Shown one piece after another: positions 1-13,317 of a stretch of DNA of 15,277 nt; positions within the stretch are counted from its first letter, which is position 1; every line of letters starts with the position of its first letter. A program made the translations under genes and the position numbers. This stretch comes from a virus, in UHGV virus genome UHGV-0113810, one strand, 5' to 3'. The notes under the pieces are model-generated. The model saw nothing but the letters and a program-made list of their open reading frames with translations. It did not search any database and had not been told where the DNA came from.

Positions 1-1361
1 AACGGCAGATACAGGAAGCACAGGAGCGAATCAGCGCACTTCAGGAAGAAATGGCAGAAACGCTGGGTGAGCAATATGACCCGGTACTGCCATCCCCCCT
101 GCGCCAGTCTTCAGCCCGTAAACCGTTACCGGCTTCACTTCCCCGTGAAACCCGGGTCATCCGGCCGGAAGAGGAATGCTGTCCGGCCTGTGGTGGTGAA
201 CTCAGTCCACTGGGATGTGATGTGTCAGAGCAACTGGAGCTTATCAGCAGTGCCTTTAAGGTTATCGAAACACAACGTCCGAAACAGGCCTGTTGCCGGT
301 GCGACCATATCGTGCAGGCACCAGTACCTTCAAAACCCATTGCACGCAGTTATGCCGGAGCGGGGCTTCTGGCCCATGTTGTCACCGGGAAATATGCAGA
401 CCATCTGCCGTTATACCGCCAGTCAGAAATATACCGTCGTCAGGGAGTGGAGCTGAGCCGTGCCACACTGGGGCGCTGGACAGGTGCTGTTGCTGAACTG
501 CTGGAGCCGCTGTATGACGTCCTGCGCCAGTATGTGCTGATGCCCGGTAAAGTCCATGCCGATGATATCCCCGTCCCGGTCCAGGAGCCGGGCAGTGGTA
601 AAACAAGGACTGCCCGGCTGTGGGTCTACGTCCGTGATGACCGTAACGCCGGTTCACAGATGCCTCCGGCGGTCTGGTTCGCGTACAGCCCGGACCGGAA
701 AGGCGTCCATCCACAGAATCATCTGGCCGGTTACAGCGGTGTGCTTCAGGCCGATGCTTACGGTGGTTACCGGGTGTTATACGAATCCGGCAGAATAACG
801 GAAGCCGCGTGTATGGCTCATGCCCGGAGAAAAATCCACGATGTGCATGCAAGAGTGCCCACCGACATCACCACGGAAGCCCTGCAGCGTATCGGTGAAC
901 TGTATGCCATAGAGGCAGAAGTCCGGGGATGTACAGCAGAACAGCGTCTGGCGGCAAGAAAAGCCAGAGCTGCGCCACTGATGCAGTCACTGTATGACTG
1001 GATACAGACTCAGATGAAAACACTGTCGCGTCACTCGGATACGGCAAAAGCGTTCGCATACCTGCTGAAACAGTGGGATGGCCTGAACGTGTACTGCAGT
1101 AATGGCTGGGTGGAAATCGACAACAACATCGCAGAGAACGCCTTACGGGGAGTGGCCGTAGGCCGGAAAAACTGGATGTTCGCGGGTTCCGACAGCGGTG
1201 GTGAACATGCGGCGGTGTTGTACTCGCTGATCGGCACATGCCGTCTGAACAATGTGGAGCCAGAAAAGTGGCTGCGTTACGTCATTGAACATATCCAGGA
1301 CTGGCCGGCAAACCGGGTACGCGATCTGTTGCCCTGGAAAGTTGATCTGACCTCTCGGTAA
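1..1361 (+). CDS. IS66-family transposase (TnpC-type), 5'-partial; reading frame is open to the window start
   Basis: 436-aa ORF from ATG at 51, with the frame open upstream to position 3 ([16 protein letters not shown]..., coiled-coil-like). The Cys-rich CPACGG...CCRCD zinc-finger region and the overall layout are what I recognise as IS66 TnpC. Identity is from memory, not a search. Confidence 0.85.
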
Positions 1362-1391
1362 ATATCAATACGGTTCTGGCGAGTCGCTTAC
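1..1391 (+). mobile_element. Right-hand portion of an IS66-family insertion sequence; right terminus at 1391
   Basis: The minus-strand reading across 1365-1391 is GTAAGCGACTCGCC..., matching the GTAAGCG-type terminus of IS66-family elements. The helicase reading frame changes to IS-derived sequence exactly at 1391/1392. The left end lies outside the window. Confidence 0.75.
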
Positions 1392-2030
1392 AAACAGAGA
1401 GCCTTTCACCAGACCTTTCGGTGACAGCATCCTGTCCAGCGATGGGATCCCTGTGCTCATTCCTCGTTGTTCGCCTGACGGGTCAAATCGCTTCTCAAGG
1501 TCGCTAACCCAGTCTTCCATGACCTCACCAAATGAGCGAAGGCCGCGACGCGATCCGGTTTTTGCATGGTCTGTCAGTTGCGTGAAAATAGCCTGAATAG
1601 CTTCGTACTTCTGCGTTGCAGTCATTCCGTTGCGGGAATAGAGCAATTCCGTCGCTTCAGTCATGCGGTTAATGGCGTAGCGTTCCATTGCGGTTTCACG
1701 AACCTGCATTGCATAGGCAACGATGTTTGCTGCGCTTGGCGTGTTCTTTGCGATCTCAGCGATATAAGCAAAACCGCCAACAGACGCCGTTAACGATTTA
1801 CGCTCCAGTTCATCGAAAAGCGTCAGGCCATCTACTGGCTTTTGCTCCCGGTGCATTCTGGTTATTTCTTCGAAAAGGATTTTGTGTGGTCGGCTGTAAA
1901 ATGAATCAGGCTTCAGCATCGCCAGAACTTTCTGGACGCGCTCACTGCTGTCATCATCCAGAAGCAATCCACCAATCACCGCCTGCTCTGCTTCGATGCT
2001 ATGGGGCGGCGCATAAAAATTATCGGTCAT
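1392..2030 (-). pseudogene. Phage DnaB-like replicative helicase, N-terminal fragment truncated by the IS66 insertion
   Basis: [25 protein letters not shown]...GGFAYIAEIAKNTPSAANIVAYA is a DnaB N-terminal domain. Phage-derived reading ends at ...GLVKGSLF, just before the expected Walker A, and continues into IS sequence (VSDSPEPY*). Start ATG at 2030 has a GAGGGTG RBS and overlaps the O-like stop. Confidence 0.75.
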
Positions 2031-2919
2031 CGTGTTCACCCTCACGAACTTTCAGGTAGGTATTATCGTTAAGCAGGTAATCAAATCCCTTTTTGTGCCA
2101 GACGGTTCCGCGCTGATGGTTTGGGCGCTCTTCGAACATCCATCGGCAATTTTCGCCAACGTAGCTCAAATAATTTCTCCAGTCCTGCATCGTGAACCCA
2201 TGCCCGTCAAGCTGGCGGGTTATCACTCCGGCTTTGCGCCAGAACGTTCGGATCTGGTTTTTACGCTTGTCATTCAGTGCGCGGATTCTTGGCGCTTCAG
2301 GAAGGATTTCGTGGTAAGCATCGACAACATCCTGACAGCTAACGGAAGGTTTTTTCTTGTCAGACTTTTTGTCTGCTGCGGTACTCTCTAATACGTCAGT
2401 ATTAGAGATAATATTATTATATTCTTTATCTGTGGTAATTTGCTGGTAATCTGCTGGTACAGTATTGCTTGCAGGCATTGGTATTGCTGGCTTTGAGGTG
2501 GTAATTTGCTGGTAATCTGCTGGTACAAAATTTGACTGATAATCGTCATATTTCTCTACCGAGAAAACTGAGAATTTACCGTGTGAAACCCAGTCAATCA
2601 TGCCGAGTTTTTTGAACTTTCTAAGCAGGTACTGAACGCGATCTGGTTTGAGTCCTGTTTCAAACGCCAGAGAGTTTCTACCGCCAAGTAGCTTCCCTCT
2701 GCCTACCAGAATTTCTCCTGCGTCAGTCATTACATACTCAGGCGTATGCTTTGCTTTGAGGATTAAGTGAACCCACAGATGCGCTGCTTCTGCGTCCTTG
2801 TAAAACGGCACATCCATAATTTTACGGTGCAGCAAGGCATACCCCTTACCGCTGCTTTGATGCGGTTGTTGTAGCCTTCTGGCCTCTCTGGCTTCGGCTA
2901 GATTAGATATGTTACTCAT
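2020..2919 (-). CDS. Phage replication initiation protein (O-like), carrying the origin repeats internally
   Basis: 299-aa ORF immediately downstream of cII and upstream of the helicase, which is the lambdoid O position. AGGAGAAAGG RBS before the ATG. Contains the in-frame repeat [10 protein letters not shown] encoded by the iteron DNA. Confidence 0.65.
2401..2528. repeat. ori-like iteron array with adjacent AT-rich tract (candidate phage replication origin inside the O-like gene)
   Basis: Perfect 30-bp direct repeat GTGGTAATTTGCTGGTAATCTGCTGGTACA at 2432-2461 and 2498-2527, each built of TGCTGGTA sub-repeats, with degenerate copies between (tattgcttgc, tattgctggc). An AT-rich tract at 2401-2430 follows in the gene's reading direction, the same order as lambda ori. 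Confidence 0.6.
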
Positions 2920-3058
2920 GACCTTTCTCCTTCTGCATCAGCTTCACTTTTTCCAACTCAGCCCGGAATCGACCAGGCTGCTTGAAGCTGGACAGGAAGC
3001 GATCACGTAGTATGTGTTTGTGAATTTTGTCCTGGTAAGGACTGAGTTGTTTTGTCAT
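2912..3058 (-). CDS. Small hypothetical protein (48 aa) between cII and the O-like gene
   Basis: ATG at 3058 preceded by AGGAGTAATT; the stop TAA overlaps the O-like start (ATGAGTAA). Translation: [48 protein letters not shown]. Not in the supplied ORF track because it is short. Confidence 0.4.
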
Positions 3059-3068
3059 AATTACTCCT

Positions 3069-3147
3069 GTTGATAGATCCAGTAATGACCTCAGAATTCC
3101 ATCTGGATTTGTTCAGAACGCTCGGTCTTGCACACCGGGCGTTTTTT
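3069..3147 (+). ncRNA. oop: OOP-like antisense RNA overlapping the 3' end of cII
   Basis: gttgatagatccagtaatgacctcagaa...gttcagaacgctcgg closely matches my recollection of the lambda oop transcript. It ends in a stem (3118-3126 with 3134-3142) plus TTTTTT at 3142-3147. Antisense to the last ~19 codons of cII. Confidence 0.6.
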
Positions 3148-3390
3148 ATTGGTGAGTCCATCAAGCGCATACTTAAAAGCCCTGCTAATCGGACTGATGT
3201 CTGATGCCATTCCGAAAGCACACAAGACCGAAGCAATAAATCTCCAGTCCGTTCTGCTTATCTTCGATTCATGACAGCCAATCATCTTTGCCAGACCGCG
3301 CTGTGTAAGCGTTGACAGGTTGATGAGTAAATCTGTTTCTGCGCGATCAACGTCGCGCTGTGTTGGCTTGCTGTAACTTGCTTGTGTCAT
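3091..3390 (-). CDS. cII: Transcriptional activator CII (lambda-type C-terminus, divergent N-terminus)
   Basis: C-terminus [21 protein letters not shown] matches lambda CII (..[20 protein letters not shown]). Position between cro and O, TTGC-N6-TTGC site at its start, and oop antisense at its 3' end all fit. Confidence 0.85.
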
Positions 3391-3400
3391 TTCTTAATAT
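3368..3400 (+). promoter_or_regulatory. PRE-like promoter with CII-binding TTGC-N6-TTGC repeats
   Basis: TTGC at 3368-3371 and 3378-3381 with a 6-nt spacer, overlapping the cII start codon as in lambda. Candidate -10 TAATAT at 3395-3400. Oriented toward cI, antisense to cro. Confidence 0.55.
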
Positions 3401-3475
3401 TTCCAATAGTGAATAGTTAGTTGAAAGGTATGCGTGGAAACGCATATGGCCTTAGTTGGTCAGATATATTGGGAC

Positions 3476-3490
3476 TCGCTTTGTCAGCGA
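3476..3490 (-). promoter_or_regulatory. nutR boxB hairpin (GACAA pentaloop, P22-type)
   Basis: Minus-strand RNA would be UCGCU-GACAA-AGCGA (5-bp stem, GACAA loop), between cro and cII where nutR lies in lambdoid phages. Same loop as nutL at 6008-6022. Confidence 0.55.
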
Positions 3491-3528
3491 CGTAGGACGA
3501 ATGTCCATTGTGAAAATAGCGGTGTTAC

Positions 3529-7531: not shown

Positions 7532-7677
7532 CCAAATATCGAAGCGGCAAACAAAAATCGCTGGGGTTTGACGATTGGTGTAACTGGATAGATAGATACG
7601 GAACTTGGTGGGATAAATAACAGGTAACTTAAGCGTATTTACTTTCGCAGCAAACCACTTATTTGAGAGGAATTAAT

Positions 7678-8301
7678 ATGTCATCAATCCGCTTAACTAC
7701 GAGAATGAAAGAGAAAATCGCTCGTAACGCTTTAATTAAGTCTGGGGTTTTCACTGAACTTGAAGAAGTAACAAAGTTAAAGAACCAGCTTGCACTTGAC
7801 GCCAGAGTTATTGCGTTTGGCGGTAAAAAGAAAACTGAGGAAGTGGATCAGTTATCATCCAGGTTAGTAGCTATAAGTGAAGAACTTGAAAAGATGGGAT
7901 GTTCATTTTACTCATACGATGTTCGTTCTACTTCAATTTATCTGACTGTATCTGGCAGAAGGGTTGGATGGCATTCATATGGGAAAGACGGCAACGGCGA
8001 AGATATATTGCTCCCTACTCCAACCAAAGATAAATGCATGTTTGATGCAGAACACGAAATAACAAAAAGGTTTGATGAAATCTGCGCATTGCAACAAAAA
8101 CTTGAAGCCAAGAAAAAGGATATCGAATCAAATGTATGGGCTGCTTTGAACTCAGTCACAACAGTTAAGCGACTTATTGAAGTTTGGCCTGAAAGCAAAG
8201 AATTGCTACCAAAAGAAGCAGACAAAGCAAGTACAGCACTTCCTGCTTTACGGGTAGAAGATTTGAATAAGATGATTGGACTTCCTTCCGAGTCCGCATA
8301 G
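7678..8301 (+). CDS. Hypothetical protein, 207 aa (AT-rich accessory gene in the PL operon)
   Basis: ATG at 7678 with a GAGAGG RBS. Low GC relative to neighbours. No motif I can assign with confidence. Confidence 0.55.
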   Translation: MSSIRLTTRMKEKIARNALIKSGVFTELEEVTKLKNQLALDARVIAFGGKKKTEEVDQLSSRLVAISEELEKMGCSFYSYDVRSTSIYLTVSGRRVGWHSYGKDGNGEDILLPTPTKDKCMFDAEHEITKRFDEICALQQKLEAKKKDIESNVWAALNSVTTVKRLIEVWPESKELLPKEADKASTALPALRVEDLNKMIGLPSESA

Positions 8302-12160: not shown

Positions 12161-12698
12161 CTATCAGGCACTGCGTGAAAAGGCAGAGAAAGCAACGTGT
12201 GGTGTGTGGTCGCTCGAATATGGAGAGGGCCGATTTGATGGTGATGATGCGCTAATTCATCGTGAAGTTGCTGGATATATTCCCATTTGCAGAATTGAAG
12301 GAGCGCATCCTGAAAGCGGTTTCGATGAAGATTTCCAAACTGAACAGCAGGCCAATGCTGAATTCATCGCCGCAGCCAATCCGGCTACCGTCTTGGCGCT
12401 GCTGGATGAACGGGAAAGAAACCAGCAATACATCAAATCCCGCGACCAGGAGAACGAGGATATTGCGCTAACGGTAGGGAAGTTGCGCGTTGAGCTTGAG
12501 GCAGAAAAACAGCGGGCAAAGGATCTGTTTATGGAAAATGCTCGGCTTAAGTCAGGTATAGCCGGTCTGATACACCTCGGTATTCGATATGCAGATGTTG
12601 AGGTCATGAGAATTGCTGGAGATGCCCAGCTTTCTACCCCATGCACTGACAGCATCATAAACAGCATTGCAACAGGCATTCGCATCAAAGGAGAGTGA
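12147..12698 (+). CDS. Ea22-like family protein, 183 aa
   Basis: ALREKAEKATCGVW and FIAAANPATVLALLDERE motifs are typical of ead/Ea22-like proteins; size and position next to xis parallel lambda ea22. Confidence 0.6.
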   Translation: MSKIDYQALREKAEKATCGVWSLEYGEGRFDGDDALIHREVAGYIPICRIEGAHPESGFDEDFQTEQQANAEFIAAANPATVLALLDERERNQQYIKSRDQENEDIALTVGKLRVELEAEKQRAKDLFMENARLKSGIAGLIHLGIRYADVEVMRIAGDAQLSTPCTDSIINSIATGIRIKGE

Positions 12699-12699
12699 T

Positions 12700-13317
12700 A
12701 TGAGCGCTATAACCAAAGAACGTATCAAATTATTCATTAAAAATCCGCTTGATAACGGACTTACTCGTGGCGAACAAATGGAACTGGCACGAATTGCACT
12801 GGCATCACTGGAACGCGAACAGATTCGCCACGAGCATGCCAAATGGTCTGACTCCACATTTGGCTGCGTTGGCCCCATTGGTCCGCTGAAACATCTCTCA
12901 AAAGAGGCACTGGAAGCCGCAGCCGAACCAGACGATCTTAGCGAGTGGGCTGATATGCAGTTTCTGTTGTGGGATGCACAGCGCCGTGCTGGCATCAGCG
13001 ATGCTGAAATTACCGCTGCTATGGAAGATAAATTGAAGATCAACATGGAGCGCCAGTGGCCTGAGCCAAAAGATGGTGAGCCTCGCTTGCACATTAAAGA
13101 ACCCGGCAACTATCCGGTAACTCCGGATGGTTGGATAAGCTGTAGTGAGCGAATGCCCCCTCAAGATGATTGGATTTTAATTTATTCAAAGCACGGCGAG
13201 TATATGGCAGGACAGGTACAAGGGGAATACGTGGAGTTGAGCGACGGCACTTTATCGTGGTTAGGGAACGCCTTGTTCTGGATGCCGCTACCAGAACCGC
13301 CGCAGGAGGTGAAGTAA
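12700..13317 (+). CDS. DUF550/DUF551-like phage protein (dATP/dGTP pyrophosphohydrolase-like N-terminus), 205 aa
   Basis: GGAGAG RBS. C-terminal WISCSERMPP...WMPLPEPP resembles DUF551; N-terminal part resembles the DUF550 region. Recalled from annotation patterns, low certainty. Confidence 0.45.
   Translation: MSAITKERIKLFIKNPLDNGLTRGEQMELARIALASLEREQIRHEHAKWSDSTFGCVGPIGPLKHLSKEALEAAAEPDDLSEWADMQFLLWDAQRRAGISDAEITAAMEDKLKINMERQWPEPKDGEPRLHIKEPGNYPVTPDGWISCSERMPPQDDWILIYSKHGEYMAGQVQGEYVELSDGTLSWLGNALFWMPLPEPPQEVK

Follow-up and report, generated by a model that had tools for sequence, protein, structure and literature searches.

A 15,277-nucleotide stretch of the UHGV virus genome UHGV-0113810, referred to here as the window, carries inside its O-like initiator gene a set of repeats that very probably marks the replication origin of a lambdoid prophage of the HK022/HK620/VT2-Sakai type, acting through the mechanism proposed below. 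The region lies midway through its own initiator gene, in the part that codes for a linker, and, read in the direction of that gene, is made up of two triplets of 11-bp sub-repeats, a 23-bp AT-rich tract, and a 10-bp inverted repeat with a 4-nt loop. This anatomy, its conservation among relatives, its link to the N-terminal domain (N-domain) of the initiator, and its identity with annotated putative origins are all evident from sequence comparison.

The repeats are an already known feature of standard lambdoid phage biology, annotated as putative in public records. The VT2-Sakai record (AP000422.1) holds two misc_binding features, 'ori iteron 1' and 'ori iteron 2', with 'O protein' as the bound moiety, and in window coordinates these fall exactly on 2498-2527 and 2432-2461. 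The HK620 record (AF335538.1) places a rep_origin on the same two blocks. The parallel region is described in the Sf6 record (AF547987.1) as a 'repeat region reminiscent of the phage lambda origin' and in the phage L record as a 'putative origin of replication'. A preliminary description of the window had proposed a lambda-like origin layout inside an O-like gene, and this agrees both with these annotations and with the comparative evidence. The O gene of the window shares 99.7% nucleotide identity with that of mEp235, 99.1-99.4% with those of Stx2-converting phage 86, VT2-Sakai, and Stx2 II, and 98.6-98.7% with those of HK620 and HK022.

Anatomy of the probable origin region

The initiator gene is the open reading frame (ORF) at 2020-2919 on the minus strand, 299 codons in length, and both 30-bp repeats lie inside it. 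The 30-mer GTGGTAATTTGCTGGTAATCTGCTGGTACA is present twice on the minus strand, with the distal copy ('ori iteron 1' in VT2-Sakai) at 2498-2527, where AP000422.1 has its misc_binding feature at the equivalent bases, and the proximal copy of the same sequence ('ori iteron 2') at 2432-2461, adjoining the AT-rich tract. Identity stops sharply at both borders. The repeats are in frame and encode a duplicated 10-residue peptide within residues 132-163 of the 299-residue protein, placing them mid-gene between a winged helix-turn-helix (wHTH) domain (residues ~40-125) and a phrog_24933 domain (residues 173-299). The two identical in-frame 30-mers and their sub-repeat make-up had both been noted in the preliminary description and are borne out here. 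Tandem Repeats Finder detects an 11-bp period inside each 30-mer. Each consists of three direct 11-bp sub-repeats, reading TG-TACCAGCA-GAT-TACCAGCA-AAT-TACCAC on the coding strand, and CCAGCA stands at one phase throughout when this strand is set in 11-nt lines. The exact 8-mer core TACCAGCA (minus strand) occurs 4 times in the 15.3-kb window, all within the two 30-mers, compared with about 0.5 exact matches expected for a random 8-mer. From start to start the 30-mers are separated by 66 bp, equal to six 11-bp units, and all six sub-repeats share one 11-bp phase. The organisation in triplets may be explained by the fact that 3 x 11 bp gives 33 bp, or 11 codons, which is the smallest block that keeps both the reading frame and the 11-bp phase. 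The likely binding unit would be the 11-bp sub-repeat and not a 30-bp dyad-symmetric iteron as in lambda or P22.

Between the triplets lies a 36-bp spacer (2462-2497, minus strand) encoding a 12-residue linker. No other part of the O gene is as polymorphic, and the feature conserved in the spacer is its length, seen as a 44-nt step, and not its sequence. Degenerate repeat copies had been described between the 30-mers, but there is one partial in-phase match only (CCAGCAAT). The idea of 'degenerate iterons' in the spacer was rejected, as the spacer is similar across alleles whose cores differ, is hypervariable, and does not track the core.

After the repeats, in the reading direction, comes the AT-rich segment that had been pointed out earlier, with the tract proper at 2409-2431. 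Of its 23 nucleotides, 21 are A or T (91%) and 2 are C, and it is presumed to be the site of first strand opening. The 40 nt at 2400-2439 have a GC content of 0.175, the lowest in the profile from 1800 to 3200. The tract is followed at 2385-2408 by an inverted repeat with perfectly matched 10-bp arms and a 4-nt loop (coding strand TCTCTAATAC-TGAC-GTATTAGAGA). This element was absent from the preliminary description and, by the comparisons given below, is taken as the third part of the origin.

It is conceivable, though very unlikely, that the repeats bind the initiator for control only, through titration, autoregulation of O, or incompatibility and exclusion, and that the true start lies elsewhere. 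Plasmid iterons act in copy control and handcuffing, and a role of this kind would have precedent there. In lambda, oop-ori plasmids inhibit rep-lambda phages and the iterons are required for this effect (PMC3349717). Speaking against such a restricted role, an AT-rich tract and an inverted repeat accompany the iterons in every case, ordered as in lambda, and the replication module of the window showed no second candidate that combines repeats with AT-rich DNA. The two roles are also compatible, as the origin of lambda itself performs both.

The inverted repeat

The inverted repeat is not marked in the public records of the VT2-Sakai, HK620, Sf6, or phage L origins. As single-stranded DNA, either strand would fold into a hairpin of about -7.5 kcal/mol (z about -3.8). 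Its relatives were sought in 32 species loci by looking, in the 250 nt that follow the N-domain, for the hairpin of greatest length, and 24 of the 32 have a perfect 9-10-bp stem closed by a 4-nt loop of TAAC, TGAC, or TAAA. In those 24 loci, the hairpin is found 102-152 nt past the end of the N-domain with a constant codon phase, and the 30 nt upstream of it are 67-83% A+T. Each of the 24 is rare in shuffled sequence (p 0.015 or less), and at least 14 different stems are seen among the related loci.

The stems covary. In a 21-sequence alignment, both partners vary at 9 of the 10 pairs, and the proportion of paired cells is 96.6% compared with 26-45% in slid controls, a percentage that is inflated because the alignment was built around hairpins that had been searched for. 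Covariation scored 0.824, where slid controls gave 0.06-0.21 and 0 of 500 shuffles attained the same value. This choice of alignment has no bearing on the shuffles made locus by locus or on the constant position and frame. The nine inner stem pairs contain no G-T or G-U in the 21 sequences and are always Watson-Crick, so the need for a true DNA palindrome is a better fit than an RNA hairpin. C-terminal domains (C-domains) that resemble each other are found with different stems, which argues for selection on structure and against a co-evolving, sequence-specific dimer site; an inverted-repeat sequence that tracks the C-domain type, as such a site would, is therefore unsupported.

Alternatively, the inverted repeat could be an RNA element lying outside the origin, either a rho-independent terminator of antisense plus-strand transcription or an mRNA hairpin, but this has little prospect of being correct. 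A consensus scan does call the plus strand terminator-like, with the AT-rich tract as its T-rich tail, and the phage L record has predicted terminators over the same spot. The stem, however, has only 3 G-C pairs and its tail TAATATTATT makes a poor U-run, while the strictly Watson-Crick inner pairs, passing through no G-U intermediates, are as expected if the two DNA strands have to remain complementary. No promoter-like site was found on the plus strand downstream, within 1900-3500, and an Rfam scan of the whole window returned 0 matches. In lambda, the inverted repeat at the same position adjoins an experimentally defined origin.

Repeat cores and their match to the initiator

Two sets of relatives were compared, one of 80 viral loci collected through the conserved C-domain and one of 33 loci from different species collected through an alignment of the N-domain. 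Only two N-domain types are present among the 80 viral loci, the HK022-type with core TACCAGCA and the Sf6-type with core TGTCCAAC, and the layout is otherwise identical. The 33 species loci show a stepwise change of core, through TTACCAGCA, TGTCCAGCC, TTACCAACA, TGTCCAACG, AATCCAA, and TGCCAACA, and the core variants (TACCAGCA, TGTCCAGC, TGTCCAAC, AATCCAA, and others) are matched to the N-terminal wHTH domain. The triplets are identical to each other within each allele and differ between alleles in step with the N-domain, and a sub-repeat spacing of 11,11,44,11,11 is kept in 23 related loci. Arrays of 11 bp persist in distant relatives from Firmicutes and Bacteroidetes, with cores unrelated to those above. 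Loci L109-L117 (from Flavobacteriales, Lachnospiraceae, Ruminococcus, Sporosarcina, Anaerosporobacter, and others) encode distant N-domain homologues of 21-35% identity. These end in the same KYD[DE][YF]Q motif and are followed by their own 11-bp direct-repeat arrays, such as CGACACGAG in three copies or GGCAGTCAA in four, and by A+T-rich DNA. The origin-in-gene design appears to reach far outside the enterobacterial lambdoid phages.

The N-domain (residues 1-125; 2545-2919, minus strand) is a predicted wHTH and the presumed reader of the iterons. In profile searches, the window O protein matches PHROG 345, 'replication initiation O-like', with E 2e-88, and the N-domain alone matches phrog_345 with E 8e-26. 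As residues 16-169 of lambda O match the same profile (E 5e-17), the N-domain appears related to the origin-binding region of lambda O at the profile level, the link passing through the PHROG profile only. NCBIfam gave no match to the O protein, and a sequence search of the PDB found no relative with a solved structure. An AlphaFold (AF2) model of residues 1-125 adopts a winged helix-turn-helix, with a per-residue confidence (pLDDT) of 85-93 over residues 40-120, a predicted recognition helix at residues 92-104, and a beta-hairpin wing after it. The helix varies with the core. Two lineages with only 47% identity combine DRVQY or DRIQY with TTACCA, DRVKS or NKVKS accompanies TGTCCA, and LLDTF accompanies AATCCA, a correspondence that is suggestive but does not amount to proof. 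A more specific rule, pairing DR or NK with CCAG or CCAA, was discarded because it is broken by L097 and L108.

It might be argued instead that the repeats are nothing but a flexible inter-domain linker duplicated in frame over 66 bp, maintained or tolerated at the level of protein with no role as DNA, an explanation to which we give hardly any credence. The region does encode a low-complexity linker rich in Pro, Gln, and Thr that joins two folded domains, and the 66-bp copy number varies between phages, as a slippage-prone duplication would. Three triplets instead of two are found in two HK022-type loci (L006 and L013) and in one Sf6-type locus (L059) through gain of a 66-bp unit, with O proteins of 322 and 319 residues in phages with three units; this is reminiscent of the 4 iterons of lambda and 6 of lambda-type Stx phages (PMC7466680). 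However, 11 is not a multiple of 3 and the core is read in all three frames (V-P-A, Y-Q-Q, and I-T-T), so selection on the peptide cannot maintain the repeat and peptide periodicity offers no explanation for it. Among 57 Sf6-type genes, variable sites number 3 of 48 core positions compared with 16 of 48 non-core positions of the array (Fisher p 0.0016), and the non-core changes are for the most part amino acid replacements (such as R to Q, P, or L). Polymorphisms that change the protein gather where the 8-bp cores are not, and neither the within-allele identity of the triplets, with its allele-to-allele change in step with the N-domain, nor the strict 11-bp phasing across 23 loci would be expected from a linker duplication. 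The encoded peptide seems to behave as a tolerant linker, with constraint mainly on the DNA cores. The dual constraint suggested in the preliminary description leans heavily towards the DNA.

The unit of inheritance can be read from a mosaic junction at window 2429. Similarity to Sf6, HK106, HK629, mEpX2, and others (96-98%) is limited to 2020-2429 and ends inside the AT-rich tract, at the HK022-type/Sf6-type junction, and the C-domain has 97% nucleotide identity with phages that carry the other N-domain and the other iterons. It follows that the iterons travel with the N-domain and are exchanged with it as one unit, while the inverted repeat, C-domain, and helicase travel together, apart from them. 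An alternative, to which almost no weight is given, is that the repeat and AT-rich region is mainly a recombination 'boundary sequence' for the exchange of lambdoid modules, with the repeats as crossover by-products. In its favour are the position of the junction exactly at the AT-rich tract and the hybrid crossover points that the lambda record marks beside its origin. Against it, a junction at this point would be expected if the N-domain and iterons form one jointly inherited specificity unit, and neither the phasing by 11 bp, nor the tie of the core to the recognition helix, nor the covarying inverted repeat is explained. The two roles can coexist. No rival accounts for the 11-bp phasing, the core-helix link, and the strictly Watson-Crick covariation together.

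Several observations nevertheless weigh against reading the region as an O-type origin, to which the inflated pairing percentage given above also belongs. In the literature searched, no report was found of O binding, unwinding, or O-dependent replication for an origin of the HK022/HK620/VT2-Sakai type, and the public annotations of this type of origin all say 'putative' or argue by analogy. A Pfam scan of the O protein gave DUF7376 as its sole match, below threshold, and left Phage_rep_O unmatched, while direct comparison of window O with lambda O yielded a BLASTP E of 4.7 and no match by hhalign of the N-domain alignment. The top Foldseek matches in the PDB are all wHTH DNA binders, but they are generic regulators and weak (best E 2.4e-3), and given these E-values we claim no specific structural family for the modelled N-domain. 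The contrast between core and non-core positions arises because the non-core linker is hypervariable, the cores being no more conserved than the gene average (6.2% vs 6.7%), and in 22 HK022-type genes the difference has the same direction (1/42 vs 5/53, p 0.22) in a sample too small to reach significance. Finally, an inverted-pair search of 2432-2527 found no dyad symmetry within the repeats; with sub-repeats that are direct and not dyad-symmetric, the mode of binding is one that we infer.

Proposed mechanism, prophage context, and known systems

The steps proposed here are drawn by analogy with lambda (PMC7466680, PMC3349717). The N-terminal wHTH domain would bind the 11-bp sub-repeats, about one per helical turn, and because the sub-repeats recur once per turn, the bound initiators would all sit on the same side of the double helix. 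Lying three turns apart, the two triplets may then come together in an O-some-like complex whose strain opens the neighbouring AT-rich tract, after which the C-domain (residues ~173-299; 2020-2400, minus strand; phrog_24933, E 2e-82), presumed to be the helicase-recruiting domain, would bring in the phage's own DnaB-like helicase. In the most speculative step, the inverted repeat would extrude as a hairpin or cruciform after opening and either stabilise the bubble or mark the site of loading or priming. Two general rules for O-type origins can be framed from this, and that they hold jointly is a doubtful but possible proposition. The first is that the inverted repeat is selected for self-complementarity and not for its sequence, and acts as an extruded hairpin or cruciform in helicase loading or priming. 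The second is that initiators of this family bind as monomers piled up along a single side of the helix, each reading an 11-bp direct repeat through a simple correspondence between recognition helix and bases (QY with TA, K/R-S with GT). If this second rule held, the specificity of an origin would become predictable and swappable.

The surrounding genes are those of the early region of a lambdoid prophage, as the O gene is preceded by cI, cro, and cII and followed by a DnaB-family helicase gene, with N, RecT, and a lambda-type integrase encoded further along the window. The 3' part of cII contains, in antisense orientation at 3115-3145 on the plus strand, a strong hairpin that resembles a terminator and has a T-run (AGAACGCTCGGTCTTGCACACCGGGCGTTTTTT); it has no Rfam match, and in the P22 record the corresponding position is annotated as the oop terminator. 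Also encoded in the early-left region, at 7663-8301 and 12667-13317 on the plus strand, are a protein with an Nmad5 domain (nucleotide modification associated domain 5) and one with a dATP/dGTP pyrophosphohydrolase domain.

The helicase gene, the 'P' of HK022 and HK620, is broken. Its remnant (1390-2030, minus strand) retains only the DnaB N-terminal domain in Pfam and matches positions 1-198 of the 421 in the TIGR03600 phage_DnaB profile. Homology to the HK620 helicase gene ends at window 1390, after about 213 of 478 codons, and beyond this point is an IS66-family element whose transposase ORF (51-1361, plus strand) matches the Pfam models DDE_Tnp_IS66 (E 1e-102), zf-IS66, and the IS66 C-terminal element. 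This helicase/IS66 junction was found in no complete E. coli genome of the collection. The origin and initiator look intact, and because the helicase gene is interrupted, the replication module is likely to be defective; the prophage in the window probably cannot fire or replicate autonomously unless a compatible helicase is supplied in trans. An intact-looking origin and initiator beside a broken helicase gene therefore predict a replication-defective prophage.

The wider relevance of the region is that it corresponds to the replication control, known as the 'Eru3' unit, of the phage type carrying Stx2a in E. coli O157:H7 Sakai. Replication of Stx phages drives toxin output. What is added here is modest, namely the covarying hairpin, the family-wide 11-bp phasing with its allele-specific cores, and the link from Eru3 to the O-type origins. 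The first two are small, testable additions to the picture of how a lambdoid origin is built.

Compared with HK620, VT2-Sakai, and HK022, the window has the same gene, equivalent coordinates, and the same AT-rich tract and inverted repeat, and its 30-mers are 100% identical to those of HK620. It differs in that its helicase gene is truncated by the IS66-family element, and the public records of HK620 and VT2-Sakai mark the two 30-mers only, without the 11-bp substructure or the inverted repeat. The putative origins of phages L and Sf6 (PMC8022706; AF547987.1), with six 11-bp repeats (TGTCCAACGGA), share the two sub-repeat triplets 66 bp apart, the AT-rich tract, and an identical inverted repeat, and both phages have a DnaB-like helicase and a C-domain of about 90% (L) to 97% (Sf6) nucleotide identity. 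They differ in the core, which is TGTCCAAC and not the TACCAGCA of the window, and in an N-domain that is 45-56% identical and has NKVKS in its recognition helix where the window has DRVQY.

The lambda origin lies inside gene O and has four 18-19-bp iterons at ~20-24-bp spacing and a 38-bp AT-rich tract. Both origins are placed in the middle of the initiator gene with iterons, AT-rich tract, and inverted repeat in the same order, and in both the peptide encoded by the origin is a linker. The lambda inverted repeat after the AT-rich tract, as read from its sequence, has 12-bp arms that are 92% complementary and a 4-nt loop. O dimers bind the lambda iterons, which have dyad symmetry (PMC7466680), whereas the window has direct 11-bp units in two triplets. 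Lambda P hijacks the host DnaB whereas the module in the window has its own DnaB-like helicase, and the two O proteins are without pairwise sequence similarity.

In P22, the origin is inside initiator gene 18 and is followed by gene 12 for a DnaB-like helicase, with iterons and then an AT-rich tract. By our own reading, an inverted repeat (CCCCC-TAAA-GGGGG, below the length cut-off of the repeat tool) comes after that tract. The four ~20-bp palindromic iterons of P22 (TTTACC..ATCGGTAAA; TTTACCnnATCGGTAAA, four copies) are unrelated to the window repeats. The L-type initiator is ~25% identical to P22 gp18, and the L helicase is 29% identical to P22 gp12 (PMC8022706). The P22-type comparison made in the preliminary description does not carry over to the initiator, which is of the HK022/L type and not the gp18 type, nor to the iterons, and the label 'P22-type' fits the class of helicase and not the origin.

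The Eru3A and Eru3B proteins of VT2-Sakai-type Stx2a phages are the same pair as the initiator and helicase of the window. Eru3 has been described as lacking O and P (PMC8044961, PMC8951638) and Eru3A as a protein of unknown function (PMC8951638), and iterons, AT-rich tract, and origin of replication go unmentioned in PMC8044961. Eru3A is, however, a homologue of HK022-type O, and its GenBank record has carried 'ori iteron' features for years. Unlike those two reports, the GenBank annotation and the present analysis place Eru3 in the O-type origin family, and linking it back to that family is useful housekeeping.

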